DNA of 63,997 bases, counting the filler, from Jimgerdemannia flammicorona (Eukaryota), in assembly GCA_003990765.1 (NCBI GenBank). It is 3 parts of 3 records of this genome, joined end to end, with 100 filler letters (N's around TTAATTAATTAA, not from the genome) between each part and the next. Parts side by side here need not be neighbours in the genome. Positions count along the whole stretch, not along the records: positions 21,652 to 43,200 come from RBNJ01001431.1; 2 more parts are not named here. One strand, 5' to 3'. Positions 15,720 to 41,648 of the stretch are shown here, piece by piece. Position numbers and translations under genes: made by a program. Position 1 is the first letter of the stretch. Each line of letters opens with the position of its first letter. Below the pieces are notes generated by a model that was not told where the DNA came from, ran no database searches, and worked only from the letters and a program-made list of their open reading frames with translations.

Positions 15720-15735
15720 TTATGAATAAAAATGT

Positions 15736-17557
15736 TTAAAGCTCCATTAGAATTGCCACCACCTTTTCAGCCTGACCAAAGATTATTTCCTTCCATTTCT
15801 CATAGATAGCCCTCCAGATACAGGCTCTATTCACACTGCTGCAGAAGATATCCACTTGCTCAGATACCATCTTCCTGATGTCAGCCATATAGTCCTCATC
15901 TACCTTATACATACCCTTCATCATTCAGAAGTACTGCCACCATCACTATCACCAACTTTGGTCCCTGTAATACCATATTGAGAAATCCTTTCCAGGCCTC
16001 CTGAGATCCATTAAACACATCCACCTCCTTGATGATATCCTCCTCCACAAGTTTCTCAAGTACTGCCTGATATCAGTCATCAGCCATCATTGCTAGGGGC
16101 CCAGGAGTGGCTGGCCTCAGAGTCCTACTCAACTCCTGCAGCATCTCTCTATCTGCCAACACATCAGAGGCCACATCCACCAGGTCATCCTCCTCCACAC
16201 CCTTCTCTAGCCATACTACTTCACCTGCCTCTGGATACTCCCAATGAATATTTGCTACTCTTGCCATGCAAACATCCTCCAACTGAGTCTCTGGTACTAC
16301 CTTGATGACCTCCTCAAAACCCCCTACATTTACCTCTTCCTTATCAGCCCACTTCCCCTTTACCAGCATATGAGCCAAGTTCTCCACACCCCCTAGTTGT
16401 GAAAAAGATACCTCAGCTGTCTCTACCTCTTCCATCTGACTTTTGGCCATCTCTGTCCTTTCTTCTTCCTCCACTTTTGAGCCCTAGAGGACTGTCTGCA
16501 GGTACTCCCAGTTTGCCCCTCCACCATCTCTTCCTCCTCTCATCTGTCAGAATCCAGATCCAGTCCTTGGTGAACTCCTCCTATCTCCTCTTCTACAATT
16601 CCTTTGCGACCTCTCTCTCCTCTAGGGCAAGCAGCAATTTCTCTTCCTCCTATTCAGAACCTTTTTTTCTCTATACCTTGTACTCCTGCTCTCTGACATA
16701 AATCACTTCTGATCAGTCTCTTCTTAGCCCTATGGCCTCCTTGCCTTCCAGTCTCACCATTACCTCACAGTTGCCATTCCTTAGCTTAGTCCCCTCTCAG
16801 AATATAAACTCAAAGTTAACCATCTCACTGAAAGCCCCCAGAACCTCGGCTATAATCCTCTTAGTCTCCTGTCTCTCCAATGTCAGCAGCTCCTCAATCA
16901 CCAGGTATACAGTACATAGATCCCACCTCAGATACCTCGCCATATCAACCTTGATATTCTTGATAACCAGTCCTTTCTCCAAGGCTTTCACCATCTCCTC
17001 CTCCTCCACAAATCCTATCTCAACTGTCTTAGCCAATGAGATAAACTTCAGAGACTCTACACCAGTAACCTCCTCTCCTACTAGTCTCAAGACCTCTCTG
17101 GCTGATATCCCCAGCCCCAAGAAATTCACCAAGATGGCCCATGTCAATACTGACTTGTGGAAAAAAGGATGCACCACCAGTTCACCAGAGCCTGCCACCA
17201 TTATAGCCTTTCTCTTGTTCTTGAAAACTCCAGCTATTACCCTCCAGCTGACACAAGCTCACCAGCATTCCCCCTATTAGTCACTGACTCAGCCCTAGGA
17301 ATGTTAGTCCTAACTGTCACATTTCCAGACCCCTGACCCCTGGCAGGCACCTGACCAGTCACTTGACCAGTCACCTGGCCAGTCACCTGACCCCTACTTC
17401 TATCAACACTACATCTCCTCTGCCCTACCCCCATGGGCCTAGTAGCTGCCCTCCTGCCTCCTACTACTATATACCAACTCTCAATACCAGCTAGTCTCCC
17501 CTGACTACCTACTCCTCCAGCTCCTCTAGCCCCTGCACTGGCTCCAGCTGCCACCAT
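15736..17557 (-). pseudogene. LINE ORF1 remnant
   Basis: Fragmented minus-strand ORFs immediately upstream of ORF2 inside the TSD-bounded element. Confidence 0.7.
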
Positions 17558-20500
17558 GAAACTCTTGGGTAGACCCAGGCTAGGCCTTCTCCTCTCTAGG
17601 TGCCTAGAGCTTGATGAACCTTAGGTCACCATATTATAAAAACTTGATGGATTTTGACAAAACTTATTGTGAGTTGTTGCCAGACTCCTGTCACACCTAG
17701 TACATTAGTATAGGTAAAATGAAAACTTGAAAACATGTTGCTTTTTACAAAAAGATGCCTATGTGGCTTAGCTCACTCTATGTGGTTTGAGCAAAAGAAG
17801 TCCTCAGTGCTTGTGACTTGATGATGTAATCTTCAGCCTTCTTTCTAATTTGGTGTAGTCTCTGGATTTCTGCATCAATCCATCTCTAGATTTGTGGCTG
17901 AGGTTCCATTAGAATCTTCTTCTCCAAAGAGTAGTTCTTTTGGAGTAAAGTGTGTACTCTGTGACCATATATCTTGTAAGATAGAGAGAGCAGTTGGGAG
18001 GTAGTTATCCCAATTTTGTATATCTCTGAGATCTTTATCAGGATGTTCTTGAGGGTCTTATTGGTTCTCTCTGTCTGTCCATTTCCTTGAGGGTGATATG
18101 TGGTGGTCTTAATGTATTGGATCTTATATTTCTGATACATTATCTCATAGAATCTATTGACAAATTCTGTGCCATGGTCTGTTGTGATTTACTTTGGTAT
18201 CTTGTAACAGTAGATAATTTCTCAGTACAGAAAGTCAGCTATATAGAGGACATTAGCTTCTCATAATGCTCTTGCTTCTATCCATTTAGTAAAGAGGTCT
18301 ACAATAACTATAATATAGTGGTTTTCTGATAGTATTACTGGTAGTGGCCCAATGATATCCATTGTGATGTGGTGGAAGGGGATAGGCTCAATTCTTGATA
18401 ACCTGGGTACCTGGTCTTACTGATCTTATTTCTGTTTTTAGCACTTGTCATATCCTTTGACAAATTGGCACAGGTCTTCTTCTATCTTGGGCCACTATAT
18501 AGTTCTTCTTATCTTGTCATATGTATTGGTTTCTCCTAGGTATCCTTGCTTATATACTTTCTTTATTACTTGATACTTCTTATATTTGGGTATTACTAGC
18601 TTTTCTTCTTTTTTGAGTATAGTATTGTCTAGTTCAAACTGTTTCCAAGTCTGGTTGATGATGGTGATTGTCTAGGGTTTGAGGTGGTTGGGCATCTTCT
18701 ACTACCCAAGGTAGCTGATTAATCCATAGTATAACTCCTTATTTATGTTGAATAGTTTTGATGGTGGTATTTTGGGGTGTCCTTGAGAGTGCATCAGTAT
18801 TGGTATTGGTTTTCTCTGAGTGATGCTTGATAGTACAGTCATACTCTTGCAGCCTATAGATCTATCTGATATATATTCCTTTGGGGTTCAGAGTGTGGAA
18901 TAGCCAGGCAAGAGCAGAATAATCTGTTTGAATAGTGAAGTATTTCCCAGCTAGGTAGTAGTGGAACTTGTCTACTGTCCAAACTACTACTAAGCATTTG
19001 AGCTTATATGACTCATAGTTCTGTTCTATTCTGTGGATACCTTGGCTTACATAGGAGATGACATATTCATATCTATCTTTCTTCTGAGCTAGGACTGCTC
19101 TAAGTCCTATAGTGCTTGCATCTATCTGCAGGATGAACTCTAGGTTTCAATCTGGTCTTCTGAGAATAGGTGTTTGGGTCAACCTAATCTTGAGTTCATT
19201 GAAGGTTTCTTGGTATTCCTTGGTCCATTCGAATTTGGTCTCCTTCTTCAGTAGCTCATAGATAGGTGCTATAATATTGAAGTATTTTTTGATGAATCTT
19301 CTGTAGTAGCTGGCCAGTCCAAGAAAGGCATAGACTTCTGTAGTTGTTCTGAGTCTCAGGTAGGCTGCAACAGCCTCAATCTTTATAGGGTCTGTGTAGA
19401 TTCCTGTCTGATTGATGAGGTGTTCTAGGTAGGTGATTTTCTGAGCCACAAATTTGTACTTCTTGGGCTTAATGTAGAGGCCATACTTCTTGAGCTTTTT
19501 GAGAGCTAGCTGTATATGATTGACATATTCCTATGCAGTATTGCTGAAGATGATTATATTATCAACATAGACAAAGAGCCATTTTTCAATCTCATTGCTA
19601 AAGACTCTATTCATCATTCACTGAAAACTTGCTGGGGTATTGTACATTCCAAATGACATTCATAGATAGATATAGGTGATATCAGGTATGATGAAGGCTG
19701 ATTTCTCACTGGCATCTTGAGTGAGACCAATCTGATGGAAGCCTGAGAACAGATCCAAGGTAGTGTAGTATTTGGCTTTGCTTCCAAGAGTAGTAAGGAT
19801 TTCTTGAATATTTGGCAAGAGCTGTCTATTCTTCTTGGTGATTACATTGGGCTTCCTGTAGTCAATGTAGAGTCTTGGTGCAAACTCTCTAAGCTTGCTT
19901 CCTTTCTTTGGAGTAAGGATAATGGGTGAAGCCCAGTGACCAATAGCTTGCTTGATAATTCCAGTTTCTTCCATTTCCTTGAGTTCTGCTTGCAGTCATT
20001 CTCTGTAGACAGGTGGTATAGGTCTGGCTTTCTGGTAGATGGGCTTGGTATTGCTAGTATCAATTTCATAATAGTACTTGGGTTCTTGATTGTGGATATC
20101 CCTAAAGTCTGTAGTAAGTACTCCTTCATTCTGGTGCAGGATCTTGAGAAGTTGTTCTTCCAGGGGAAAGTTTTCTCCAATGGTATATGTGTGCTTATTC
20201 TGGTCCTTATCTTTCTTGTGCTCAAGTTTAGTAATCTTGGTAGTAATATAGACTCCTCTTTCAGTAGATCCAAAGCCTTGTTCTCCTCTCTTAGTCTTGA
20301 TGAGTTTGATGGCTTCCATGATCTTGGGCTTTTTGATTTCGTGGATCAGCATCTGGTCAATCCTGTCATACTTCTTGACTTCGAATGAGGTGGTGGGGTT
20401 GTAATTCCTAACTATGAGGAAGATCTCACCAGTGTAATTAGAGTCAATTACTCCTCCTTTAACTGAGATTTTGCTTTTGACCAGACTGCTCCTAGTCTTG

Positions 20501-21551
20501 ATAATTCTGGCATAGTTCTCTAGCAGCTTGACTCCAATTCCAGTACCAAGTAGGGTAGTGGTTTGTGGTTTGAGGGTAGTATCTTGAATGCTGGCAAGGT
20601 CTATTTCTATAGCTCTTTCAGTCTTATATTGTGGGATCTTAGCTTCAGAGTGAAACTTCTTAACCTTGAGGATGATATCTGGTTCTTGTTCCTCCTCATC
20701 ATCACTATCAGCTTGAAGCTTGAGGGGCTAGTCATCTTCTTCAGCTTTCCTTTTTGCTTCAGCAGCTTCTTGCTCATACTTCTATTGGTGGATTTTCCTG
20801 ACCTCACTGATACAGGACCAGCAGTCATTCAGGTGTTCAGAGAAGTACATCCTAGTACTATGGGGGTATTTTTCTTAAGGGGCATAGCCATCAATGATCT
20901 TATTGTACCACTGCTCATCTGTGAGCTTGGGTGTCTTGTTCTTGTTCTTGTTCACTGAGTGCATGAAGACTTCTGTGTTCTCTTCATCTCCTTCCTCCAT
21001 GTCTGGTAGAACTCTCTTGTGGATATTGATAGAGACTTATACCTTTCTTCCTTTATAGTTGATTGGTATCTTTTGGGCATTGAGGTCGATGATGGTCTTG
21101 GCCTTGTGAAGTCATTGGTTACCAATGAGAATGTCATAGTTAGTAGTGCTTATAACAATCACATCTACTGGAATAGTGGCTCCTCCTATCTTGATGAAGA
21201 CTTTTTGGATTTTGCCAAGAGAGATAGCTTGTATACTATCTGCTATAATATAGACCATCTTGGTGAACTCTTCAATGTCCCAGCATAAGTAGTCAATTGC
21301 TTTCTTACTTATAAGATATCCTCCAGCACTGGTATCAATGATGGCATCAAAAATATAATCTTCAATCTGATATAGGGTATAGGCTGATATCTTGTACTGA
21401 TCTTCAGATTCTTTGCCTGAGTTTTCAGATTCTTCCTATACATTATGAGCTTCTATAATCTTGTACTCTTGATTCTTGGTGGTAGTTGTAAGTCTTACTC
21501 TTAACTGCTGTCTGAAGGCAGAGACTTTGGCTAGTTTTTTTTTTTTTTTTT

Positions 21552-21651: not shown

Positions 21652-22540
21652 TGAGCAATGGAAAAAATCCTTAATTGATGAATGGAAGAATCAGATGGAA
21701 CTTATCTGGGAAAAGGAGTATAAGCCTATTAATGCTATCATTATACCCTCAATATCTCGTGATACCGATGATTTTATCAACTCAATATATAAGAAGAAAC
21801 AGCGCGTCGATGTGGATGATGAGCTTGAATGGTGGGTGTTGTTTTTATGTTTTTTGATTGGCTTGGTTAATTTTCACTCATATTTCTCTGTTTCAGTTAT
21901 TTGTCAGAGAATCCAGCAGATCCTCGTATAGATATACTGGATTGGTGGTGGCGAAATCAGTTGGTATATCCTAATCTTTCACGAATGGCTCGCGATTATC
22001 TTGCTATTTCGGCAACATCTGTTCCATCTGAACGTATTTTTTCTATTGCTGGTGAGCTAGTGACTGAACGTCGAAACAGCTTGTGTATAAATACAATTCG
22101 TGCATGCATGTATTTGGATTCTTGGTGGTCTTCAGATATTTTTCACTTTCAATTACTCTGAATATTATTCAAATATTTTCCGAATCATTTTTTCAGAGCA
22201 GAGTTCAGAGGGTCGGGTTCAGGGTCGGGTTCAGGGGTCGGGTTCAGGGTTGGGTTCAGGGGTCGGGTTCAGGTTTGGGTTAAGGGTAAATAACGGGTCG
22301 GGTGACATACATTTCCAGGTCAGGTTAAAGACGGGTGACGTATTATTCCGGGTCGGGTTAAAGACAGGTGACGTACAATTCTGGGTCAGGTTAAAGATGG
22401 GTGACATATAATTCCAGATCTGGTTAAAGACGGGTGATGTATAATTCCGGGTTGGGTTAAAGACGGGTGACGTCTAATTCCGGGTTGGCTGTTTTACGGG
22501 TCGGGTTTCGGGTTAATCGGGTTGGGTTTGCAGAGCACTA
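21652..22540 (+). mobile_element. 3' end of a young hAT transposon: transposase C-terminal dimerisation domain, subterminal repeats, TIR
   Basis: DILDWW..YPNLSRMARDYLAISATSVPSERIFS..RRNSL; 33-bp repeat GGGTGACGTATAATTCCGGGTCGGGTTAAAGAC about x6; ends CAGAGCACTA; CpGs retained. Confidence 0.93.
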
Positions 22541-23978: not shown

Positions 23979-24304
23979 CTATATACTGAATCTTATTATA
24001 TAGGATTATCTTATATATAGACAAAATATCCAAAAGTGAAGAAATCCTGAGTATTGTTTCTAAGCTATACAAATTGATTATATTGGTCCAATTATCTCTA
24101 CAATAATGAGAAAAATTTACTATATAGTACAGGATAATTAGTTTAGTTCTGAAAGAGCTGATATTGAATATCTGTATATATTAGAACTTGATATTTGCAA
24201 TAATTCAGCATATGCTGGAGTTTGCTATAATATGTACTCTTTTTTGATTAGCTGAAACAAATTGTTTGGATGACTTAAGAATTATTAATTAATTTCAAAA
24301 TTGA

Positions 24305-24336
<32 letters not shown>

Positions 24337-25287
24337 GCCAATAGATTCCACAATTGCTACTAGTAAGAAAATGCAAAGTAAGGCTATAGATGAAAGCAAG
24401 TGAGATATATTAAGGAATTTTATCAGAGTTTTAAAAGTAAGTAATGATTGCTTTGACTCTATATTCATTTTATCTATCTCTATATAGTAATATAAAAATT
24501 TACTATTTTAACTATCAGTATTTTGACAATTATATAAAAAATATAGTAAAACAAACTACTCCAATAATAAGCTTTGTAATATCAGTATATAACCTTTTGA
24601 TTGATCAACTAAAGGACAAGCTCAAGGATAGACTAGAAGATAGTAATGATTTCCAGTTTAGCTCAGATCAGAGAGATGTCATAGAGGTTACTTTGAGCAA
24701 GTATAGAAAATACTACTCCAAAATAGATACTACCATATATTCAATAAATACTAGTATATTAGTATAGCAGTTACTCCTTCAAAAAAAGAGAAACTCTCTA
24801 CAAAACTTACTCTTTTTTTCAAACAGTATTGGATCTATACTTAAAGCTATAATACTATAAAGATTAAGACTGAGAGCAGCACTATATTGAGAAAGCCAAG
24901 CAAGTTATAATTAAAATTTATCAGAAAAACTATGCACTACTGTAAGGTTCTAGCTAGTGCTCTGAATGAATGGAGTTGATCTAGATGAGATTCGATTCAG
25001 ATTCATCATGTGATGGATTCGAATCAATTTGGATTGGTCTCATGATCTGATCCAGATTGATCCGGATTGATCCATTCAGATTGAAATCTTTGGTGACATC
25101 ACTCTTTCTTTTGTTCATTTCGCTCTTGTTTTTTTTTTTCTGCCACACTTTGGTGACATCACCCTTTCCTTTGTTCTCTCTCTTTTCTTTGTTCTTTTTC
25201 TTTGTTCTTTCCTGCCACATCATGAGCAAATAAAACAGCAGCCCTTAATTCATACGTTGGTCCAGTCTACTCATTTTTCACCCTGCA

Positions 25288-27357
25288 ATGATCATCAAAA
25301 GAGGGAGTATTCAAGGTAGAAACACACTCTCTGCTGACAATGTTAGATTCTTTCTCATATAGACAACATACAAGCTGCTCATCAAGAGCCAAAGGGGTGA
25401 TGGCGGTGGTGGTGGCGATGGTGATGGCGGGGATGAGGGAGAATTCCGGCAACAACTCATGGCAGCTCTTCGGACCTCAGAATTCACAGACCTCATAGCT
25501 ATGTATGCAGCAGCCTTTTTGGAGTAGCCGATAGTAGATGTAGGTTGCTCACTTGGCCACCACTTGTTTACTTGTGTTTATTTAAACTTCCCCAGTATGA
25601 CCCAATTCACCTCGTGCTTTTCTTAGAGTCCACAGCTCTATGGCGAGATCTGCTGACTTTATTTGCAACATCTGGTCAAGATGAAGAAAGGCTAGTGGAT
25701 GTTGTGGGGCATGCCTTTGGTGGCTGAGCTGTTGAGTCAATGCATCACATGGTGGAGGTCTCAAAAGGAACAGAAGCAAGCCTTCGTGAGCAATCCTTGT
25801 GCAACTCATGCAACTCGTCGGCGTGCAACTCATTGGTATGCAGCTCACTCACTCATACTCTTTTTCTGAAATACCTATCTCTGTATTTTATTTAATTTCA
25901 TTTTTATGTGGTCTCCCCCTAAAAAACACCCACACCCACATGTAACCCACACACAACCTGTCCACACACAACCCGCCCACCTGCATGCAATCCGCCCACA
26001 TGCAACCCACCTGCAACCTGCCCACATGCAACCTGCCCACATGCAACCCACCTGCAACCTGCCTGCACACAACCTGCCCACATGTAACCCATCCACATAC
26101 TTATCTTGGTCCCTCAGATCAGGGCTCAGTTCCATTAGAAAGGAGAGTTCAAAGTTACCTGAGTTCAACCACATCCAGCATCTGATCAAATAGAGAAATT
26201 TGAGGGCAAGATATTCAGCATGAGCAGTACCAGTATCATCATCAAGGCTTGGGGGTCTACATTTGAATCAGAGCCAATCATACTCGACCAAGGGGTCCAT
26301 TGGCCAGCAGGAGTAACCAACGATGAAGAGAATCATATCTTTATTAATGAATGTGGAGAGGTGGTTGTGATGGTGATAAGGAACCTCTATGGTGATGAGC
26401 TTCACCACCATATTAACGAGATTTGTGAGGATTGCATCAAATACTGGGTGGCATGGAAGAGGGAGTGAAAAAAGCAAGGAGGGGGGGTTTGGACAGGAAT
26501 TGGGTATACTGCAACACTGGTGAAGGGTGGGTTCCGAAATCCCCTACACTTGTCTCTCTTTTTTTTTAACCCCTCTCCAGATAAATCACACTCTTCACCG
26601 ACATACTCTTTTTGATACAATTCCAGAGATATACAAGATTCTGTACCCCTATCAGAACTTTAGAAGTGCTGTCGAAGAGCAAACTACATGCGAGCATAAC
26701 ACAGCCTGTGCAGTGATGGTGGCTATGATCTGGGGTTCTTTGAGCAGATTAGTAGAGCGTACGGCAGGCCAGCTTGGTGGTAATCTCAGCGTGGCTGTAT
26801 GTATGTTCTTAGCGCAATTTAGCATGCCATATGAGGTGAGGAGCTCTGCTTTTTTGGGGTGCTATAGCCTGGGGGATTTCTGTGGCCCGGGGGGTTTCTG
26901 CCCCCCGAATGCAAAAAGGACTGACCAGTTACCATCTATTTTGACAGGATTCCAAGCTGGGGCTCCTGGGGCTGGACCAAGGGCAGGCATCTACCAGTAC
27001 AACCTGGCAGTATGAGGTCCTGGGCCAAGGGTTCACCCAACTGTATGCTCGCATCACATTAGGATATATCAGGCACAACCTTTCTCTACCCATACACACA
27101 GACAACAACGTCACCCCGGTAATGTTTTACATCCTGGAAAGGAAGGACCCAACCTGAGAGGATAGCAGCGGAGTCTGGTACGACCTCACCTACAGTTTCG
27201 GGGTCTCGTTTGTGGCTAACACGGCTATCCTATTCCAACCACATGACTACCACGGCACTGTCCCTTCGAGGAGAGCTCAGACACAACAGTCGTCACACTC
27301 ACAACAGATGACAGGCTCATCAAGGCCTGGGACCAGTGGGTGGAGCAGTTTTTGTGA
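25288..27357 (+). pseudogene. TET-like 2-oxoglutarate/Fe(II) dioxygenase cargo gene (multi-exon, disabled)
   Basis: Last exon from 26948 (after intron 26836-26947) reads ...GYIRHNLSLPIHTDNN...SSGVWYDLTYSFGVSFVANTAILFQPHDYHGTV (HxD at 27095-27103, distal His at 27251); upstream exon HIFINECGEVVVMVIRN...GGVWTGIGY; stops are C>T or G>A type; 1-nt deletion at ~27262; 5' exons less certain. Confidence 0.78.
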
Positions 27358-27639
27358 GGGTTAGGCAATCTTTTGTGAGGGTTAGGCAGCCATTTTGTGC
27401 AGGTTGGGTAGTCTTATGTGGGGGGATTGGGCCGGGCACCTCTTATGTAGCACTAGCTTAGCCATTATGCAGGGCCCTACCAGCCCCTCGGCCCTGCTCT
27501 GTAGTGCTACCAGTGCAGTGCTGCGGTGCAGGGCCAGGGTGCCCATGGGACCCGAACCGGCAACTTCGACTACCAGAAATGCCCTCTGACCACCAGAAGC
27601 ACCCTCCGACTGCCAGAAGCACTCTCTGCCCCGAACTCC

Positions 27640-27985
27640 TTGGTGGCTTGGGGCTGCCCCTATGCCACTAGCAGAGGGCTGCAAATTTTGTGCGCTCCCT
27701 CTGCCTGCCCTGCCTGCCAACTGACCATGCCCACTGACCCAGGTACTGATAGCTTGGGGCTGCCCCTCGCTGCTAGCAGAGGGCCGCAAATTTTGCATGC
27801 TCCCTCCACCTCCCCCCTGACCTGGACACTTGTGGCTTGGGACTGCCCCTTGCTGTTGGCAGAGGGCCGCAAATTTTGCATGCTCCCTCCACCAACCCAC
27901 CCACTGACCTGCCCACTGATCCAGGCACTGGCAGCTTGGGGCTGCCCCTTGCTGCTGGCTGAGGGCCGCAAAAATTGCACACTCT
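27640..27985. repeat. GC-rich repeat (~90-110 bp spacing) x4 between the convergent cargo and transposase genes
   Basis: GCTTGGGGCTGCCCCT...GAGGGCCGCAAATTTTGCATGCTCCCTCC recurring. Confidence 0.8.
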
Positions 27986-28128
27986 CTCCGCTGCTGCCAC
28001 CACCAACCCTGCCCCACTTTGGCTACAAACTCTGGGCCGAGTTCTCAGGTTTTTTTTCCTTTTTATTAATTTGAAAGGTATTAAATATTCCACAAGGCCA
28101 ACCAACTTATCCGTGGACCCGCCAAATT

Positions 28129-30650
28129 TTAGCGGCCCAAGCCCCACCAAGACTTCAGACACATACATGCCTGGATTGTCTCAGCATTTAGTGCACACCT
28201 CTTTGGGGCAACAAGGTCCACCCCATCTGAGAACACCCACTTGATGGGAGCACTGGAGGCAGGAATTGCCAGGTAGTCCCGAGCCATACCACACAGGCTG
28301 GAGAAGTCTATTTGACACAGCTGCACACTCCGGTGGGTAGAGCGGTGGTTAGATTGATGGGTTAAATTGGCCCAATGCCTGCCTGACAATCCACCTTCCA
28401 CCAGTTGAGCACCTCTGTGCCCTTCAGCAGGACTACGTGGTGACTGGCGAGGTAAATGGTAAGTTTGTCTATTGATGGCAGCTCTTCCACTGACAGCTCT
28501 CTCTTTCTCTTTCTGCTGAAGTAAATGTGGGACAGGAGAGATCCCTCGGCATATTCATCTGGACTTTGGCCAGAACCTTGCGGCAGTATGTAGTTTTTCC
28601 AGTACACTTCAATTATGGCCTGCTTGGTTCTCTCAATGAAGTGCTGCTCCCAGCCCTGATCTTTATGGTATTGTAGCTTTAAGCATAGGTCCAGCACTAT
28701 TCAAAGAAAAGGAGAGTGAGTTTTTGCAGGGTTTCCTCTGTTTTGGAAGGGGCAATGGCCACATGCTGACATCGACATATCTGTACTGATTGAGTATATG
28801 GCGGTATCTGTTTGGGAGTAGTATTTTCTAAGCTTGCTTAGAGTAACCTCCATGGCATCTCTCTGATCCAGGCTTAACTATAAATCACCACAACCCTTCA
28901 GCCTGTCCTCAAGCTTGTTCTCTAGCTGGTCAATCAGAAGGTTGTATACCAGTATTGCAGAGCTTATTGTTGGGGTTGTTTGTTTGACTATATCCTTCAT
29001 ACAATCGTTGAAATACTGGCAGTTATATGTGGTGAGGTATTCCACTGTGTGGAGGCAGACAAAACAAGTGTGGAGCCAGGGCAACCACCACTTACTTCCA
29101 AAACTCTGACAACATTTCTAAGTACATCCCACTTACTTTCACCTAGAGCCTCGGCCCATATTTCCTTATTGGCAGCCATCGTTGAATCTATTGGCTTTTT
29201 TTTTTTTTTTAAAATAAATCTTCCATCATCTGAAACAGTTGCTTCAGCCAACCGAAGAAAAAAAGGATGCATACCACAGCAAACTCCAGCATGTGCTGGA
29301 TCATTGCAAATGTTGAGTTCCAATGTGTACAGATGTCCAATATAAGCTCTTTCAGGGCTAAACTGATTACCCTACACTGCGCAGTGAATTTGTCTTATTA
29401 TTGTGGAGATGATCGGACCGACACAACCAGTTTGTGCAGCTTGGAAATTATACTCAGGGCCTCTCCTCTCTCAGATGTTTTGTCTACATGCATAAGATAG
29501 TCCTGAACAGTGAGGTTCAGTATGTGGGCCTGGCATCATACATGGTAGTTTTCTGTACTGAAGGCCACATTTTCCTGTTTGAGGCTGGCTGCTAAACCTT
29601 GGAAAAATGTTGAGTTATTTGTGGCATTGTCTGTTATAATGTCCAAAATCTGTACTTGAAATATTTGGTTGACAAATTTATGTAAAAATAAGTAACCAAT
29701 AAAATCTGGTTTGGTTTAGGACCTCCCTCAAAATGCCGACCTGACAGCAAGCCCCCCTTTTTTACCTTGGTGGTGATCCCAAGCTCCCAGATACAACTAA
29801 TAAAAGTATCTGTGATGTTGTCTCCAGAATGAGGGCCAGCAAGTTTGATGAAGTCAAGGGTGAGAGATTTAAGCTGCCAATCGAGGTCAATCCAATAACC
29901 GGTAATACCCAGAAATGAATTTGCATTGGGAGATGTCCATGTGTCAATTGTAAATGAAATTTTGTCTGCCAAATTCTGCTTATTGAATGTGAGGTTAAAT
30001 TGGTGAGCTCTTTTATATAATTCAGCTTGCAAAGGTCATGGTGCTGCCCTTATTTTACCTGAAGTGTCTGGTGGAGATTGTTGTACTCCTTCCTATAGGC
30101 CTCCAGGACATCTTTGCAAATAGTATCGGCACTTGGCAAATATAAATCATGCTTGAGGAGGCCAAAGATACTATACAATTGATCACTCTCGATGGTTGTG
30201 AATGGCTGGTCTGTATACACAATCCAGTGAATGAGCCAATTTCGAAATTCTGCTGAAGAGTATGGCTAAAATTTTTGATTAAATGGCATTGTTGATATAG
30301 AAATGGTCAGGCAATCAGATAAACGTACCCACCATAGCTTGGATGTTGATTTTATTTGTCTCTGTGTTCTTTTTGATTTTGTCAGAGTGCTTATCTTTTA
30401 TGTGTCAATTCATGTTCAAAGTCATACCCCCAAGCATTTTGAACTTCTGGCTGGTGCAGTTCATGGGGGTGGATGAAACAATATCATGTGTATGTCAAAA
30501 CAATATCATGTGTGTGTCAAAACAAAGTGTCAATAGGTGTGTCTTAATTTTTTACCTGTAATAATTACAAACAACATCATCTTCTATCTTAGTACAATAT
30601 TACTAGATTTTGGAGTGAGGATTGCGTGGAAGGTGTGGAACTATCAGGGA
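28129..30650 (-). pseudogene. hAT transposase (BED finger, DDE core, dimerisation domain), intron-containing, disabled
   Basis: ISFTIDTWTS, ITDNATNN, CQAHILNL, DICTHWNSTF, MARDYLAIPASSAPIKWVFS; BED remnants at ~30395-30620; start position uncertain. Confidence 0.93.
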
Positions 30651-30799
30651 TGTTTGACTTGAAGCATCATCGGTACTATGAACTGTTGAAGACTGATCTG
30701 TCGACATGTGTGTTTGCATGTTTGTATGTGCATGTATATGCGTGTGTGTATATGTGTGTATGTGTATTGTGTTGTGGATGCATCCAGCATATGAGTCAT

Positions 30800-31220
30800 G
30801 TGGAGGATTTGGATTGGAGGATTCAGTTGAAGGATTCAGATGAGAATTTGGATTGAAGGATTCAAATTGGAGGATTCAAATTGGAGGATTCGAATTAGAG
30901 GATTCGAATTGAGTGATTTGGATTGAGTGATTTGGATTGAGTGATTTGGATTGAGTGATTCGGATTGAGTGATTTGGATTGGAGTGGTTCAGATGGGTGA
31001 TTCAGATGGATGATTCAGATGGGGCGATTCAGATGGGGTGATTCAGATTGAGTGATTCGGATTGAGTGATTCGGATTGGGGTGGTTCAGATGGGCGATTT
31101 GGATGGGGCAATTTGGATGGGGCGATTCAGATTAAATCTGAGTTGATTCAGATGGCTTCAGATTTGAGATTTGAATCAAACTGTCATGTGACGAATCAAA
31201 TCCGGATTTGATTTGAATTG
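30800..31220. repeat. hAT subterminal 15-bp repeat array (GATTGAGTGATTYGG-like)
   Basis: More than 20 degenerate units next to the TIR. Confidence 0.9.
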
Positions 31221-32189
31221 ACTTGTTCGGAGCACTAGTTCTAGCTAAAGTCCAGATGAATATGCTGAAGGATCTCTTCTATCATACATTTACTTCAGCA
31301 AAAAGAGAAAGAGAGAGCTATCAGTAGAAGAACTACTATTAATGGATGAACTTATTAATTATCTTACTAGCAATTATATAATTCTACTAGAGAGTACAGA
31401 GGAGCTCAACTGATGGAAGATGGGTTGTTTTCCTATAGATAGTTGGTGAGATTGAGCTAATTTTAATCACTATTCTACCCCCAGAGTATGTGGTCTTCAA
31501 ACCAACCTCTCTAATCTATATAGTATAGCTCAGGACTATCTGGCCATTCCTGCTACCAGTGCTTCAGTCAAGTGAGTGTTCTCTAGTAGAATAGATCTTA
31601 TTTCTCCTAAGAAGTATATGCTAAATACTGAGAAAATCCAGACTTATATATCCTTTAAGTCTTGGTTAAGTGTAGACTACTAAAATTGGATAAGTTCTAC
31701 AGTATTAAATATAAGTCAGAATAAATTATTTTTTGTACAATATAATCAGAAGTATATATTTATATAAAAAAGAGTTCAGTTTAGAGTATAAAATAATAGA
31801 CAGAGAGAGCATACTAGACTTTGTAATTCTTTACAAGTTATAAGAAGTAACTATGAGCTGCCTAAGTAGTAAATATTGGCCAAAAAGTACCAAGATTGAC
31901 AGAGAGAGTGTGTAAAATTTATAGCCCTCTGCTAGTAGTAAAGAGCAATCCCAAGCTATCAGTTGGTATAGAAGTCCAGATCAGAGAGTTTGTAGCCTAA
32001 TGATCTACTATAAGAAGTAGCTACAAGTAGTTAGATTTTAGCATAAATTTAGATCTTATAGGTACCCTGGCTCTACACTATAGTACTGCATCAGCAATAC
32101 TACAAAACAGGATCAAGAGGTCAGTAAAGTCTGGCAAAAAGCTAAACTAGTACTATAAAAAGAGATACCTGACTATCTAATCTTTACAA

Positions 32190-34310
32190 AACTACTTTAC
32201 TCACTAGTCTCAGGTTTTAATAAGTCTATCATTTATTATAAGTACAATTACTATAGTGTCTGAGCTCTTCTTAAAGGCAATAGTACTATAGAGATTATAT
32301 AGTTGAAATAGGATAGCTATATTGACCATAAATGAGATCCTGAAAACATAGCTAAGGTTATATCAGATACTATTAATTCACTCCCAAGTTGGGCCTTTCC
32401 TTTTCAGAATATAAAATATTATCAAAGTGACATTGTTGTTTATATATAGGCAGAGAAATATTGTATCTAATATACTCTAATATGATATAAGTATATGGTT
32501 GAGTGAACTCTTGGTCTAGAATATCATATTGCCAGACAATACTAGAGGATATATACTCTTTATCAAGCTCTAGAAGCTCTAGCTTAGAAATCTGCTAAAA
32601 TGGATAGCATCTGAACAATCCTTCCTTTTTGTATATAGGAAAAATCCTCAGACTAAACCAAAAGAAAGTCAAGCTCCTCATCTCATATGATAAACTAAAT
32701 TGTACTAAGAATATATATATAGCTATACTGAGAGTATCACTAAGCTAGTCTGCTATTAACTTTAATAATCTGCTCAAAGATCTCTAGATTATGGCTGCTA
32801 TTATAATATAGACCATATTATGCTCACATATAGCTTATTCTTTTACAGTACTTCTAAAGTTCTGATAAGAGTATAGAATCTTATATATTTCTGGAAATTT
32901 AACAAGAATAAGTTAGTAAAGAAAATTTCAAAAAAGAAAATAAATGTGGAGGATTTCAGAAAAGTCCCAGAGAACCTACTCTTTGTCAATATTATAGTAT
33001 ATCTAATTTTCAGCCAAACTCTCTCTTCTTGCTTTTTATATCTCCTCTTTCCACCAACTGATATTTGATATAATTCTTATAAATCTCATTAATATAGCAA
33101 TGAAGCTCATCATCATAGAGATTTATTACTACTATTATAACTATCTCTCTATGATTATTAACAATAATATAGCTCTCTTTATCATTAAATACTCCAGCAG
33201 GTCAATAGGCTCCTCAATCAAGAACAATTAACTATAATTTAAATATAGATCCTCAAGTCTTAATAGTAATCTTAGTATTGCTCATACTGAATAACTTGCT
33301 CTCAAACTTCTCTAATTAATCAGATACTAAATGTGGTTGAACTTGAATAACTTTGAAATCTCTTCTGCAATAAAACTGAGTCTTGATCTGAGTAGTAGGC
33401 TGAGTTAAGTATATAGATAGATTATATATAAGTATTATATAGAAATTTTTAAAAGAATAAAAAAGAGAGAGAAAATAAAAAAATAAAATAAAATAAAATA
33501 AAGTTAATTATTTTCAAAAGAGTATAAGAATAAGTTATATATATATTATATAAGATTACTTACAAAGGCTTGCTTCTGATCCTTTTGAGATCTCTACTAT
33601 ATAATATATTGACTTAATAGCTTAGCTACTAAAGACATATCTCATAATATTCTCCAGCCTTTCTTTATCTTAATCAGATATTACAAATAAAGCCAGCAGA
33701 TCTTACTATAGAGCTGTAGATTCTAAGAAAAAGAGAATAGTATAAAGTAAATTCAGTCATACTGTAAGATTTAAATATAGTAGCAAAAAGACAACCTACA
33801 TCTACTATTAGTTACTTTAAAAAGGCTACTGTATATATAGTTATAAGATCTATGAATTCCAAGATCTGAAGAGTTACTATAAGTTATTACTGAAATTCTC
33901 TCTTATCTTTATTATCATCTGTACTCCTAAATGAATTGAATCAAATGAGGGTTCAATTTGAATTCTATTTTTCAAAATGTAATAACTCAATAAATATATG
34001 TTCAAAATTAATAAGCTAAAGATTATTAAATTTAGACATATTTTTATTAAGTTATTATATTTAAAAAAAATAGAGTTTAAATCAAATCTTGAATTGAATT
34101 AGACCTTTGATTTGATTCATTGAAAGTACTAATCATTACCATCACTATTACTATTGCCATTATTATTGCCATTATTATTACTATTATTACTGCTACTTTG
34201 GTTTTTAATAAGCAGCTTACATACTATTTATATGAGAAAAAATTTAATATTATCAGTAGAGAGTATTTTTTTATCTTGAATATTCTCTCTTTTGATAATT
34301 ATTAAATAAA
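32190..34310 (-). pseudogene. Second, highly decayed copy of the TET-like cargo gene
   Basis: Reverse complement aligns along 25288-27357 (e.g. ATAGCTATCCTATTTCAACTATAT vs ACGGCTATCCTATTCCAACCACAT). Confidence 0.85.
33919..34131. mobile_element. Degenerate hAT MITE
   Basis: Decayed TAGTGCTCC-type ends, similar to 51265-51609; flanks ATTATCAT and ATCATTAC both derivable from host GCCATCAC by transitions. Confidence 0.75.
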
Positions 34311-34519
34311 TAAAAAAATGAGTAGACCAATATATAATTAAGAGCTACTATTTATTTGTTTATAATATAGTAGTATAGTAAGGCAGAAAAAAAAAAAAGT
34401 ATTGGGAAAAGAAAATAATATAAAAAGAGTGATATTACTAATCTAAGTTGATTCAAATCTATTATATAACAAATCTGAATTGGATCTCATCTGAATAAAT
34501 AAATTCATTTAAAGTAATA

Positions 34520-35939
34520 CTAGTATCAGATTTATATACTTTGTCTTGGATTTTTACAGTAATGTAGAATCTCTTGACTTTGATTTTTTCAGAGAATTCT
34601 TTAGAATCATATTCTATTATAGTAATAGTATATTAGAAGGATGGCTCTTTATTTGTATTAGTCTTCTTATTAGGATATTTGTGAGATATATGTCCTCTCT
34701 TTTTATAATTAAAATATACTTCTTTCTTTATAAGTTCTTCAATTTTCTTATCAGATAGTTTCTTAAATTTATCTTATAGTTTTGAGGACTTAATTCAGAG
34801 TTTTTACTTCTTCTTGAATTGACATCATTTATCTCTTATATTGTTGTTTCTATTGTATCTTAGTCTTTGAGCTATAGGGATGATACATACTTTAGTAATA
34901 GCTTGTCCTAGATACTATTATTTATATAGATAATTATAGAGTTATTCTTATTTGCAAATTTTCTCTAATAGCTATCTAGAGATGAGATCAAAGAACTGGG
35001 CAGCTTGGGTTCCATTTATGGTCTATTCTCATTAGCTGTATTCTACTCCTTTAATATTCAGAAACATTTTTAGTCTTATAGTAAATACTTTAAGAACTTC
35101 TTTTCTATCATTATAGAATCAAAGGTTCTTAAGCTTAGTTCTGGCTTCAGTAATGTGGGCAGAGTTGTAAAATTATTAAATAATTAGTTTCTTTAGACCC
35201 ATAGTAGCTAGATAGACTTTATAGTTAGGGTAATTATTATCTTCTTTACTTGTATCAATTTTGGTACAAGTTTTTCAAATGAGAGGATATACTGATAGAT
35301 TGTATCACTACTGGGTAGCTGTGTCTGTGAAATGGGTGGCAACTTTCTCTACTTGTGAGTCTGCAGTTATATAGAGATCTTCAATCTTATAGTACTTATT
35401 ATTATTAAGAGTACTGAAGTTCTGATTATTATTCCATTTATTGGTATAATAATTAGGATTAATAACTTATCTTATAAATATTATTACTTAGTCTGCTTTA
35501 TCTTTAAATATTATAAGGCAGAGGTCTTTTATAGAGTTGTTTCTTTTAATACTAAGATAAAGGGCTTGAGTGAGTATAGCTACTTGATCAGCTAGTACTG
35601 CTATCTTATTATCTATAGATATCATTCCACTATCTCTATTTCTGTTTTATAAGATAGTTAGAGTCCTTCTTCTATTATTGTGGTATATTGATCATGATTT
35701 GGAGTTAACTCTTTTATAATATCACTAAGGTAGATGAGCTTGTAGGCTAGTGGTCTTGATGGATAACTGTTAGATCTGCTGTGATTTTGATATTTTTGAT
35801 ATTCTTTATAATAGTTCTATAATAGTACTAGGCCCACTAATATTAGGTTTAGATATTTCTTCAATTATTCTCCTAGGTGACAGAGACCTCACTAAATTCA
35901 ATAACTTGTAGTTCTTATTACTAGATTATTCTTATTTAT
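34520..35939 (-). mobile_element. Very old Ty3/Gypsy gag remnant
   Basis: EVYFNYKKRGHISHKYP = CCHC knuckle with Cys>Tyr decay (~34670-34725); KVATHFTDTATQ**Y gag-like segment (~35310-35350). Confidence 0.65.
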
Positions 35940-38539
35940 TGTGACAGTATAGCTGAATTAGGAAGAAGGAAATAGGGAATAGACACTTGATTGCACCCAT
36001 TCCCAAAGTAGTATAGTTTTATAGTTAGCAGTCACCGATTTCAACATTGTCTAAATTTCTAGACATTGTCCAAATTGAACACCCCAATTTAGTGTAGTAT
36101 TTCGACATTGTCTAAATTTCTAGACATTATCTAAATGACTCATAACTTAGCTGCATAACTCAGTAGCCATCTCATAGCTAGCAAACTTGTATAAATAACC
36201 CAGTATCTTCAAGTGAATAAACCTCAGATCGAAAGTGTTAGAAAAAGAACAAGTATACTGATAAAAGAACTTTCAGAATTATCTCTTAAACACATTTGGC
36301 CTCAAGGAACTACTGACTCTGGGAGTCAAGAAGACAAGAATTCAAGATAAAGAAATCTGATATACTTGCCCACCTTAGCATCTGCTATGTTACAACTTAG
36401 TGCCCATTGGCTGATAATTCAAGATGAATCTCTCACTTTCAAGCTGAACAATGAATAACTGCAATCAGAACCCACACAACACAATCAGACAGAATGGATA
36501 TGAGACCACCTGTATTCCATGGATATACCTCTGACAAATCAATCATCACCTTCATTGATGATTTCAAGCAGTATGCTACTATAAGAACCTTATCGGCAGC
36601 ACAATAAGTAGCCCTACTCCCTGTGAGTCTCTGAGGCCCAGCAAGAACCATGTTTATGGTAGCTAATATATAAGGAGCTGATGATCCAGCAAGAATCCTG
36701 GCCTTCAAGACCTGGCTCTGAGCAACCTACTATATAGATGAAATCAAACAGGCACTCAAAGATCAACTGAATACTATCTGCCAAGGAATGTCTGAAGACC
36801 CAAACACATTCTATACAAGAATTCGACATCAAATAGTCCTTGCTGACTACCCCGATGCAGTTCAAGACCAAGTGGCTGAGAATACCTTTATGAAAGACAT
36901 TTACCAAGAAATTGCTTTAGCCATTCGATCTACTCCAACACCACTGGACCTGGGACAGAAGGTTACCTATGCCTAAAGATACTGGACTGCCAGACACCCT
37001 CAAGGCCATACAATGGAAAGGATAACTGGAGTAAAAATTGAACAAGCACCAAGAGTCACCAATACAATCCCAGCTACCATAGTCAATCGGAATATACAAC
37101 TGCAACCACAAGACCAGAGAAGGGTTGACCCAATGGAGGAACTGACCAAATAGTTCACAGAAATGACTGCACACCTCAGTGACATAGTCAAAGAGTTCAA
37201 GTAGAAGTCAGTATAGAAGTTTGCTGCTACAAATGCAAGATGATCAATAATATGCTACAATTGTGGAGAAGAAGGCCACTATGCCTCTAAATGTATGACA
37301 GAAACCAAGCAAAAGGCCAATCCAAGCAATGCAACCAGAAACCATGAGCAGGCAAACACTATCACCTTTGAGGAGATTGGAGAATCTGAGGAAGAGAGGG
37401 AGGAATGGGAAGCTTATCTTGCCATCTCAAGCAAGAAGGATGTCTGATCCAGTCCCTACAAAAGATCTCCAAGCAGACCTCCTAAGAAGGCCCAGACACA
37501 AACAAGACAACCAGAAACAGTCATCGAAAAAGAGAACCAGCAGAGTGAAGCTGATCAAGATATGGAGCTGGAACAAGATACTGAACTGGAGCGAGCAGTA
37601 GAAGATATTATTTGAAATACTACTCCATTAAGCAAAGGGAAGAAGGAGCAGAAACTGTGCAAGAGCAAGATCTTCAAGTATGATATCTTCAAGGACCTCA
37701 AGGACCAAAAGGTCAATACAACCTTTGGTCAACTAGTAGAAATTCCAACCTTTAGACAACAAATGAGGATAGGAATCTCAGATATTGGCAAAGACCAAGG
37801 TTACAGAATAATCGAAGCCAATAATGCACAAGAAGATTTAGATGAAGAGAGTGAAGATAACCAGAAAACATCAGCCTATGCTATCTGTCAGATCGAGGAC
37901 CAGGTCTTTGAAGCCATCATTGATACAGGAGCAGGAGGATATCTCATCACCAAGAAAGTAGTAGACCACCTAGGTTGGGAGATAGAAGAAGCCACCAAAT
38001 TGGTATTCGTCACAGCTGATGGGACAAGAGCAACACTCTTGGGAAAAATTCGGGATGTATCAATCAAGTTTAGTGAAGCCACTATCCCTGTGGATGTCAT
38101 CGTCACCAATGCAACCAACTATGATATTCTCATTGGCAATCAATAGCTTCATAAAGCCAAGGTAATGATTGACCTCAGTGTACAGAAGATGCAGATCATC
38201 TACTAGGGAAAGAAGATCAGAATTCCCATCAATGTCTACAAAGGAGTCCACCCTGAGATAGAGGAAGACTAAGAAGAAGAAGCCTACATAGTTACCACAA
38301 AGAAAGAAAAAGGCAAGCAATTGACAGAGGAAGAATGGTATACAAGAATTACAGATAGATATGCCCCACTAGGAAGGTGCCCCCATGGTGAAAGAATGTA
38401 CTGTGCCCAGCACTTGGATTGCTGCTACTCTTGTATCATTGAGGTGAAGAAGATCACTAACAAGCCAAAGAAGAACCAGGAGGAACCAGAAGATGGACCA
38501 CCAGAACTATTGGATGGCAGCGATGATAAAAAAGATATC

Positions 38540-38955
38540 ACAGTCAAGATACGAAGAATCCACTCTGATGCAGTTATGCCACAATACAAATCAGAGAATG
38601 CAGCAGGAATGGACTTATCTACTACAACACACACAATACTCGAACCACAGACCACCACCATTCTAGGAACAGAAATTGAAGTAACCATCCCGCCAAACCA
38701 TGTCGGAATCCTTAAGATAAGGAGCAGCTAGGCAAAGAGCGAAATATCTATAGAAGGAGGAGTTATCGATTCGGATTATACTGGAGAAATTCTTCTCCTC
38801 ACCAGGAACCACAACCCAACAATCCCATTCGAAGTAAGGAAGAAGGATCAGCTGGTACAAATGCTCATCCTACCTGTCCTTAATCCAAGAATCAAAGAGG
38901 TCACAAACATTGGACAAACTCAACGAGAAAGAGCTGGGTTCAGCTCTACAGGAAG
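38540..38955 (+). pseudogene. dUTPase domain within Gypsy pol (between protease and RT)
   Basis: Motifs AAGMDL, IRSS, GGVIDSDYTGEI, LVQML, RERAGFSSTG; also at ~57065-57480 and ~20255-20670. Confidence 0.95.
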
Positions 38956-41648
38956 AGGAGTTTTCGCAGCAACTAAGATCACTGAATTGGAGCACAAGAA
39001 GGAGGAAAGCCAAGACAAACACACCTATACAATTGGAAGAAACTTTCTCCTCAGAGAAGAATTGCAGAACCTCTTGCATACATTTGAGGATGTACTGGCC
39101 ATAGTTTTCAAGGACATCAAGACCAAGAAACTCTTGTATTATCATAATGTCAATACTGGAGATGCAAAGCCAATCTATCAGAAGGCCTGCCCCATTCCAC
39201 CAGTATACAGAGAATGGCTCAAGATAGAGATCAAGGAAATGGAGGAATCCAGTATCATTGAAGAAGCCAGCAGCCCTTGGTTCTCTCCCATCATCCTTGC
39301 ACTAAAGAAAGGAAGCCAACTAGGAGAATTTACATCAAGACTCTGCACAAACTATAGAAGACTCAATGAGGTCACAGAGAAGGACAGACAACATTGCCAA
39401 ACATTAGCAATATCCTTATTATGCTGGGGAATGAATCACGATTCTACACCACTCTGGATCTATTCTCAGAATTCTACCAAATCAGCCTTATATCTGAAGC
39501 CAGCAAAAGATCAGCCTTCATTACCCCCGATGGAACCTATGTCTATCTCTGCATGCCCTTTGGAATGTGCAATGCACCAGCAAGCTTCCAGTAAATGATA
39601 AACAGCATCTTTAGAGATATTATGGAGAAATGGATGATGGTATACATAGATGACATGATCATCTTCAGCTGAACAGCCAAAGAACACTTGGACCACATTG
39701 AGTAAATCCTCAGAAGACTTTGCAAACATGGCCTCTATATCAAGCCCAAGAAATACAAGTTTGGAGAAGAAGAAATCGCATACCTTGAACACATCATCAA
39801 CCATGAAGGAACACATACAGACCCTATAAAGATTAAGGCAGTAGCAGCATACCCAGTACCTACCAGTACCACTGAAGCCCGAGCCTTCATGGGACTTACA
39901 TCCTACTATAAAAGATTTATCAAAAGGTTCTCCCACATTGCCAGTCCTATCTATGATCTGTTCAGAAAAGAGGTCAAGTTCCAGTAGACTCAGCAGCAGC
40001 AACTAGCCTTTGATGAGCTCAAGACCAGATTGACCCAGGCCCTAATCCTGAGAAGACCCAACTGGACTCAAGAGTTTATTCTGCAGACAGATACCAGTGC
40101 AATAGGACTTGGAGCTGTCCTTGCACAAAAAAAGAATAGTGCCGAATATGTGGTAGCTTATCTCAGCTGAGGTACCCAAGGAGCTGGGCAGTTCTATGAA
40201 TCATATAAGTTGGAATGCCTTGCAGTCATATGGGCTGTGGAGAAGTTTCACTACTATCTGGCTGGCAGACACTTCACCATCCAGACAGATCATTCAGCAC
40301 TCACCTGGTTGCTCACTACCAGTAAGCCCAAAGGAATCTATACCTGATGGATCATGAAGCTGCAAGCATATGATGCCACAATCACCCACTGCCCTGGAAG
40401 AACCAACACCAATGCCGATGCCCTCTCATGAACACCCCGAAGGACCCAACCCCCACAAAATCACCATGAATAGGGAGCTGTATTACAGAATCATCAGCTA
40501 TCTGGAGCAGTGAAAGATGCCCCTGCATCTGGAAGAATGGACAAAAACAATTATTAATCAGATATGGAAACAATTCGAAACTGATGGAGAAATACTCAAG
40601 AAAGGAAAACAATTAGTCATCCCTGAGTACCAGAAGAATCAAGTGATGAAAGAAGTATATGAACAAGATCACATAGGAGGAACAAACACATATAACAAAA
40701 TGAGAAGAACCATGTGGTGGCCTGGAATGGAAGAAGATATCAGACAATTTGTCAGAACCTGTGACAAATGCCAGAAACAGAAACAAGACCGATGGAATCA
40801 AGCCCCTGGATCAGCAGACATCAAACCAATACCATTTGCCCATATTGCAATGGATATAATTGGCCCTCTACCCCTGACATTGATTGGCAACTGATATGTC
40901 ATTGTAATAGTGGATCTATTTACCAAATGGGTAGAGGCCAGACCTCTAAAGAAAGCCAATGCACAGTCAATTACCAATTTCTTTCATAGAGAAATCATCT
41001 GCTGATTCAAGACCCCAAAGTAAGTTACTACAGACAGAGGAACAGAATTCATCAACCAGTTCCATGAGGTTCTTTACAAGAAGTACAAAATCCAATACAT
41101 CAAGACTACTGCATATTACCCAAAAGGAAACAGATAAGCAGAAAGAACCAACAAGACCCTCAAGAACATCATTGCCAAGATCTGTGATGAATACGGAAAC
41201 TGGGACCACTATCTTCCAATAGCATTATCCACTCTGCGAGACATACAATTACAAAGTACCCACTTTATACCATAAGAAATGCTATTTGGCGAAGAAAGTT
41301 CTGGTAGAAGTTTGTCAGCAAGTAATGATGCAATTTGGAAGCATGTGGATATGGAGATATGGAGATTGCACCAGATCAGGAAAAAGGCAGAGGATTACAT
41401 AATCAAGGTGCAGGCACTGCAATAGAATAATGCAGAAAAGACCCACAAGCCCCTGGAAATCATCAAGATAGGAGATAAAGTTCTGGTGTATTAGAATATA
41501 GTAGAAGCTTCTTGGTCACACAAGCTGGAGCCCAAGTGGGAAGAACCTTACCTGGTGCAAGATATAAAAGGGATCACTTTCCGACTATGAAAACCCTCAG
41601 GCACAATAATCCCCACCACCATTCATCAAAACTGACTCAAGAAGTACC

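Follow-up and report, generated by a model that had tools for sequence, protein, structure and literature searches.

A disabled hAT transposon of the fungus Jimgerdemannia flammicorona carries a rare gene for a candidate TET/JBP-like iron oxygenase

The stretch of DNA considered here (the window: 63,997 nucleotides, filler included, joined from parts of three records of the Jimgerdemannia flammicorona genome, GCA_003990765.1) contains at positions 24955-31237 a transposable element of 6283 bp that belongs to the hAT superfamily and bears two genes, a minus-strand transposase and a convergent, spliced plus-strand gene. An earlier note, made from the sequence alone, had taken the product of the second gene, referred to below as the cargo gene, for a TET-like dioxygenase dependent on 2-oxoglutarate (2-OG) and Fe(II), and had regarded the element as a candidate anti-silencing system. 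From the anatomy of the element, a second copy of the same family within the window, and the few relatives of the cargo protein in protein and metagenome collections, we consider it fairly probable that this is a recent, inactivated copy of a canonical hAT family whose cargo is a rare, very divergent TET/JBP-like iron oxygenase, closest to the PE-type proteins of other fungal transposons but with H-x-D as its metal-binding motif, and that intact copies would counter silencing.

The element is a hAT transposon of the canonical kind, with an 8-bp target-site duplication (TSD). Its termini are TAGTGCTC (24955-24962) and, at the opposite end, the reverse complement GAGCACTA (31230-31237); 11 of the 12 outermost bases of the terminal inverted repeats (TIRs) pair, and both ends begin TAGTG..., in conformity with the YARNG consensus with which hAT TIRs open. 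Within the window the left terminus of 21 bases is found a single time, against an expectation of 0 from 100 shuffles. A perfect 8-bp TSD, GTTCTAGC, abuts the two ends (24947-24954 and 31238-31245) of this one insertion (n=1). The sequence on both sides of the insertion comes from another copy of this family, older and inverted: in a repeat search 31238-31428 pairs with 28386-28576, and 24812-24954 with 28569-28711. These two flank-to-interior matches (I1 and I2) share exactly the 8 bases 28569-28576, at which the young copy has a single GCCAGAAC, the reverse complement of GTTCTAGC except for one transition. Because this uninterrupted homologous site holds one 8-mer, it serves as an internal empty-site control and identifies the 8 bases as a true duplication. 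The termini, their pairing and this control together bear out the boundaries drawn in the earlier note. The element and its target site comprise the following features, where handles beginning with P and L denote related proteins and metagenome contigs taken up further below:

24947-24954, no strand: left TSD GTTCTAGC, with the empty-site 8-mer at 28569-28576
24955-24966, plus strand: left TIR TAGTGCTCTGAA, pairing with 31226-31237 at 11 of 12 bases
24975-25090, no strand: left subterminal short repeats of the GATTCRRATT type (repeat family D3)
25935-26094, plus strand: run of 15-base repeats resembling CCCACATGCAACCTG, upstream of the cargo gene (repeat family D2)
26220-26526, plus strand: cargo exon 1, from the first ATG (putative start), with an in-frame TGA at 26466-26468 (tblastn with P0005 and P0021; translation)
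26527-26626, plus strand: cargo intron 1, GT..AG, 100 bases, phase 1; position and phase match the L001 intron 1181-1266
26627-26835, plus strand: cargo exon 2 (tblastn: P0005 residues 172-227, P0021 residues 49-93)
26836-26947, plus strand: cargo intron 2, GTGAGG..GACAG, 112 bases, phase 0; position and phase match the L001 intron 1452-1533
26948-27357, plus strand: cargo exon 3, ending in RLIKAWDQWVEQFL and a stop codon (translation, tblastn)
27641-27998, no strand: four tandem copies of an 83-106-base repeat between the convergent genes (repeat families D4, D6 and D7)
28129-30464, minus strand: hAT transposase remnant with introns and frame changes (Pfam PF05699; three-frame reading)
about 28147-28305, minus strand: hAT dimerisation domain (Pfam PF05699)
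30803-31150, no strand: right subterminal 14-base repeats resembling GATTCAGATTGAGT, at least 13 copies (repeat families D1, D3 and D5)
31226-31237, minus strand: right TIR (TTCGGAGCACTA on the plus strand)
31238-31245, no strand: right TSD GTTCTAGC

The transposase was correctly placed on the minus strand, the open reading frame (ORF) 28129-28554 giving a match to Dimer_Tnp_hAT (PF05699) with an E-value of 1.8e-10 and 40.9 bits, against a Pfam cut-off of 21.4. Three-frame reading finds in-frame stops that include 30405-30407, 29536-29538, 29395-29400 and 28878-28880, the last of which is a TAG in the young copy and a CAG in the older one. The RNase-H-like DDE core was not found intact, the remaining pieces of the transposase having no Pfam match; as the copy is dead, this failure bears on activity and not on ancestry.

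The cargo gene consists of three plus-strand exons, delimited by tblastn with the relatives P0005 and P0021 and by translation. A convergent spliced gene had been proposed at this place, and its two GT..AG introns agree with that, as does the presence of all the strings quoted for it (PIHTDNN, GVWYDLTYSFGVSF, ANTAILFQPHDYHGT and RLIKAW). The product would be at least about 308 residues long, with its metal residues in exon 3 (His at 27095-27097, Asp at 27101-27103 and the distal His at 27251-27253). Three lesions interrupt it, two of them TGA codons (26466-26468 and 27155-27157) and the third the loss of one base after about 27262. The second and third had been recognised before; the first, like the transposase stops, comes in addition. 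For the TGA at 27155 a reversion to CGA had been suggested, and here the earlier note erred: the ancestral codon was TGG (Trp), which the older copy retains and which the W of P0002 and P0003 at this position bears out. Both stops that can be resolved in this way (27155 in the cargo gene and 28878 in the transposase) are of the C>T/G>A type, and the young copy, with both genes disabled, is dead. As an observation apart, the Gly-rich hairpin of exon 1 (KKQGGGVWTGIGY, 26469-26525) resembles the stretch of exon 3 after the metal strand (EDSSGVWYDLTY, 27158-27220) strongly enough that MAFFT misaligns the two, a resemblance that may be due to chance or to an internal repeat of the fold.

The older copy, into which the young element has inserted, is AT-rich, lies in the opposite orientation and is made up of 23983-24954 and 31238-34522:

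23983-24954, plus strand: left part of the older copy (transposase portion), truncated at 23983
31238-34522, plus strand: right part of the older copy, with the transposase C-terminus, repeats, the cargo gene and the terminus ...ATACTA at 34522
32183-33201, minus strand: decayed cargo gene of the older copy (tblastn/BLAST)

The two copies are collinear over six BLAST blocks between 24965 and 29523, the cargo included; the cargo region 26113-27352 matches 33392-32188 of the older copy at 67% identity, and the translation of the remnant is still recognisable (...NNNVTLIIFYILKRKGPTWE...). The cargo gene is found at the same place in both family copies within the window (2/2) and is therefore part of the element family, which, for the copies in the window, answers the concern that other family copies might lack it. 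Over 3222 aligned bases the copies show 838 differences, of which 608, read from young to old, are C>T or G>A; the fraction of sites affected by C>T is 73% for CpG, 57% for CpA, 39% for CpC and 19% for CpT, and GC content falls from 0.458 in the young copy to 0.273 in the old. The heavy C>T decay that had been put down to methylation is thus present, but, being broader than CpG, it resembles repeat-induced point mutation more than plain deamination of 5-methylcytosine (5mC) in CpG.

Relatives of the cargo protein are few. With exon 3 as the query, phmmer returned five matches at E<=0.001 from 1,835,955,588 representative proteins, namely four true relatives (P0002, at 73% identity, P0003, P0004 and the full-length P0005 of 374 residues) and a low-complexity repeat protein; four true relatives in 1.84 billion representatives make this a very rare family among catalogued proteins. 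P0021 was the one further protein to come from a word-indexed search, run with P0005. The corresponding search with exon 3 for longer proteins passed 0 of 111 candidates, and a profile search with alignment A4 passed, out of 8000 scored candidates, P0005 itself and nothing else. Scanning of metagenomes yielded a pair of AT-rich eukaryotic contigs (L001 and L002, with 99% identity between them). Among sequencing runs, one from a soil metagenome contained a fraction of 0.18 of the query words, and no RNA run was listed as containing them. The cargo gene of L001 is intact and both its introns match those of the window in position and phase (2/2); P0005 and P0021 are continuous across both intron sites, and we infer that they derive from transcripts or intronless copies.

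All six lineages that can be compared (the window, P0002, P0003, the L001 type, P0021 and P0005) have the H-x-D motif and the distal His, with 52 residues from His to His in the window and in P0005, and relatives at 30-73% identity have kept their reading frame open, their introns in place and their metal residues. P0004 is of the L001 type and represents a cluster of 28 members; 10 of the 13 full-length variants that we read keep H-x-D and the distal His, and 22 of their 28 distinct residue changes amount to single C>T/G>A changes on L001 codons, which suggests that the L001 type is a multi-copy repeat under the same kind of decay. At its right end L001 has GATTTGA-type repeats and a terminus resembling the right end of the present element; as the left end lies off the contig, this can only suggest a hAT end. 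The ORFs neighbouring the cargo gene of L001 have no Pfam family, and tblastx of L001 against the window gave nothing convincing beyond the cargo, with three matches in the cargo exons and three, of 19-34 residues, elsewhere. Between its TET-like gene and the hAT-like terminal repeats L001 also has a multi-exon gene (2230-3380, plus strand), which is without a Pfam family and without a counterpart in the element of the window.

For the identity of the cargo protein the most informative comparison is with the catalogue of Kojima 2025 (PMC12730594), in which TET genes are described from 11 DNA-transposon lineages and fall into three protein types. One of these, the PE-type, is carried by Helitron, IS3EU, Zisupton, EnSpm and Plavaka elements of Pezizomycetes and Agaricales and is thus cargo of fungal transposons, as here. 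Compared by eye, without a score, with the seven PE-type sequences printed from Table S1 of that study, the cargo proteins show the same succession of motifs from the N-terminus onwards: an N-terminal strand (GE[IL]V..V.RN in the PE-type, GEVVVMVIRN in the window), a Gly-rich hairpin (GYSAG; here SAGYT or GIGYT), a helix (FAL.WNM; here IVFNTAMR), an Arg after the metal strand (FWTT.R; here LYVCER or FYILER), a segment GG.FF..DYGI (here GG.FYN.DYGFGV), a segment N..V.W....FHGT[ST]L (here N..IVF....HGTTVL) and a tail G[LM]S..T...RL[LV]K (here GLSLTT..RLVQAW or VTLTTDDRLIKAW, the window ending in RLIKAW). In both, moreover, the canonical distal Arg is missing, the PE-type reading, for example, QQGLSF or HQIGMS at this place. 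A first, loose resemblance to the PU-type was set aside in favour of the PE-type, with which the collinearity runs from end to end and includes the C-terminal RL.K. According to the same study, PE-type models from AlphaFold DB match the structures of CMD1, NgTET and CcTET at e<1e-5, and HHpred relates the PE-type to CMD1 at an E-value of only 1.4 (PMC12730594); with the PE-type so divergent, it is to be expected that profile libraries miss the present family too.

Searches of the ESM-Atlas by protein features point in the same direction. For P0005 the best cluster, which is basidiomycete, scored 0.96 with 209 of 256 features, and 15% of its members carry PF20515; for P0004 the third-ranked cluster is that of the Tet-like 2OG-Fe(II) oxygenase superfamily (PF20515 on 72% of members, score 0.90, 175 features) and the sixth-ranked is a Tet_JBP cluster (PF12851, 31%). 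In the P0005 and P0004 searches the ten best family-bearing matches all belong to one family or clan, and the neighbours are mostly from Basidiomycota. We take these neighbours and the collinearity with the PE-type as leads towards a TET/JBP-like oxygenase.

A series of results weighs against this identification. P0002-P0005 match no Pfam family even at E<=10, Tet_JBP (PF12851) and 2OG-FeII_Oxy_6 (PF20515) included, so that the HMMER comparison with Tet-like profiles advocated in the earlier note comes out negative for these relatives. The ORF pieces of the cargo gene in the window have no Pfam match at E<=0.1, PHROGs and NCBIfam gave nothing meaningful for the cargo, and profile searches of the PDB with alignments A2 and A6 returned nothing relevant (one designed protein at an E-value of 0.73, then no match). 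AlphaFold2 models reach a mean predicted local distance difference test score of 39.7 for P0005 (16-row alignment) and 36.1 for L001 exon 3 (10 rows), both too low for a reliable fold. The ESM-Atlas recognition value for P0005, 2142, lies below the mark of 2300 set by the tool. The link to the PE-type comes from reading printed sequences and carries no score, and the hallmark that the study gives for that type, H-x-E, present in all seven sequences, is replaced here by H-T-D or H-V-D. Finally, where the last core strand begins, TET2 (R1896) and NgTET1 (R289) have an Arg that binds the C5 carboxylate of 2-OG (PMC7854593), and all six lineages lack both Arg and Lys there; the doubt already voiced about a 2-OG-binding Arg after the distal His was well founded. 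Of the TET-like 2OG-Fe(II) identity proposed at the outset, the H-x-D...H arrangement in 6/6 lineages stands, the Tet-like Atlas neighbours and the collinearity by eye are leads, and recognition by Pfam or PDB searches has failed.

Among transposons known to carry such genes, the hAT superfamily is already represented. The view that no hAT association was established is outdated, since twenty TET-bearing hAT7 families have been described in Puccinia (PMC12730594). These share with the present element the superfamily and a TET/JBP-like second gene, and differ in several respects: hAT7 elements have a 7-bp TSD and a consensus starting CAACGG or CAGCGA (here 8 bp and TAGTGCTC), their PU-type protein has a distal [RK].G.S.Q motif and a His-to-His spacing of 67 (our own count on hAT7-1_PGr) as against 52 here, and in the three hAT7 families for which the study gives a gene order the TET gene precedes the transposase and is read in the same direction, whereas the two genes here are convergent. 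The TSD of 8 and not 7 bp and the different termini rule out membership of hAT7, and hAT is not among the carriers listed for the PE-type. The original transposon-TET association is that of the Kyakuja-Dileera-Zisupton (KDZ) elements with AG- or PU-type TET/JBP proteins (PMC12730594); KDZ elements have a transposase of a different superfamily, and AG-type proteins are recognisable as TET/JBP, whereas the present cargo goes unrecognised by Pfam. None of six strings taken from this element, five cargo peptide motifs and the 14-base left terminus, occurs in the 187,118 characters of the supplement of Kojima 2025.

On the interpretation that we favour, a TET/JBP-like oxygenase serving against silencing, intact members of the family would encode an oxygenase that depends on iron and oxidises a methylated base in DNA, 5mC being the likeliest; the enzyme would act in trans on the family's own copies, and the oxidation would counter methylation-linked silencing by the host and perhaps methylation-linked C>T hypermutation. 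CcTET of Coprinopsis cinerea oxidises 5mC and also N6-methyladenine (6mA), and the same anti-silencing role has been proposed, without experiment, for all TET-bearing transposons (PMC12730594).

Two departures from this account, each unlikely in our estimation, deserve to be weighed. The first keeps the TET-like oxygenase and changes its chemistry: the enzyme might use another co-substrate, as does CMD1, make a different DNA-base product, or bind 2-OG through other residues. CMD1 of Chlamydomonas is a TET homologue that uses vitamin C and, having no functional basic residue to bind the C5 carboxylate, is unable to use 2-OG (PMC7854593). It resembles the cargo protein in the 52-residue spacing of its H-x-D...H (His345...His397), as in the window and P0005, and in having no working basic residue for that carboxylate; it differs in not being transposon-borne and in showing no sequence match to the cargo in the PDB profile searches. 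As the canonical distal Arg is missing from 6/6 lineages, and by eye from the PE-type sequences as well, a CMD1-like departure in co-substrate or product is possible; a functional parallel with CMD1 itself is speculation. Candidates for a substitute are an Arg about 13 residues after H-x-D, invariant among the lineages (R298 of P0005) and present in the PE-type also ('WTT.R'), and a further Arg, present in 5/6 lineages, that stands in the RL[ILV]K motif some 21 residues beyond the distal His. Against an altered chemistry, 2-OG might simply be bound by other Arg, Tyr and Asn residues that are conserved. Some 2-OG oxygenases, such as the JmjC and FIH enzymes, bind it by residues other than the canonical Arg.

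The second departure would make the gene a passenger, a host gene captured once by the hAT family and of no use to the element. Gene capture by DNA transposons is common, and the young and older copies are both dead. This account, which we rate no higher than the first, sits poorly with relatives that at 30-73% identity keep frame, introns and metal residues, and with an L001-type relative that is multi-copy and ends near hAT-like subterminal repeats. The closest published proteins, furthermore, are without exception carried by transposons, which belong to five or more other superfamilies (PMC12730594); this speaks for an association between gene and transposon that has been selected repeatedly. 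That the protein is no oxygenase at all, its H-x-D...H coincidental and its role another one, for example that of a DNA-binding accessory factor of the transposon, would accord with the absence of any profile or structure-database match, the low confidence of the AlphaFold2 models and an H-V-N in the representative of one relative cluster, and is nevertheless very improbable given a triad that persists in 6/6 lineages and in 10/13 variants of a decaying cluster, H-V-N forms that fit G>A decay, Tet-like 2OG-Fe(II) feature neighbours for two independent family members, and a run of at least six strands around the motifs even in the low-confidence models.

The TET/JBP-like oxygenase of the interpretation we favour can be carried further, into a proposal that we rate as somewhat less likely than either a changed chemistry or a passenger gene: the cargo would be an H-x-D sister group of the PE-type, spread by canonical hAT elements and common in soil fungi as multi-copy repeats. 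Lacking the canonical 2-OG-binding Arg, the enzyme might, as CMD1 does, turn to another co-substrate, and might make a base modification so far undescribed in fungi that protects the element against methylation-linked C>T hypermutation.

The surroundings of the element in the window consist for the most part of repeats. A second, unrelated hAT family lies beside the older copy, with a dimerisation domain at 21871-22158 (plus strand; PF05699, E-value 8.5e-21) and GGGTCGGGTTCAGGG-type subterminal repeats at 22200-22500. Gypsy-type long terminal repeat retrotransposons are present in at least three copies (19999-20727, minus strand; 38273-39595, plus; 56923-57822, plus), their pol region including a dUTPase domain (PF00692, E-value down to 8e-24). 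The stretch 12001-17000 combines a strong GC skew, of about -0.47 to -0.48, with ordinary GC content, and has within it a weak reverse-transcriptase match (13667-13954, minus strand). One of the few host-type genes is an apparently intact member of the thaumatin family (7038-7859, plus strand; PF00314, E-value 4e-57). A probable host gene is the open frame of 438 residues in a GC-rich island (44444-45757, plus strand), for which Pfam gave no family at E<=1e-4.

The concept of TET-bearing transposons is already in print (PMC12730594); what is new, set against the portions of that study used here, is that a canonical hAT element with an 8-bp TSD carries such a gene, that the protein is PE-like with H-x-D as its metal motif, and that soil metagenomes contain relatives in multiple copies. 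The published catalogue of 11 lineages and three protein types is to that extent incomplete, since a canonical hAT element here carries a protein type that sequence searches of Pfam, NCBIfam and the PDB all miss. The H-x-D form may link the PE-type, with its H-x-E, to the ordinary TET/JBP enzymes, and the shared lack of the 2-OG-binding Arg raises the question of co-substrate and product. TET-carrying transposons, none of which to our knowledge has been bench-tested for counter-silencing, are the best candidates for mobile counter-silencing in fungi.

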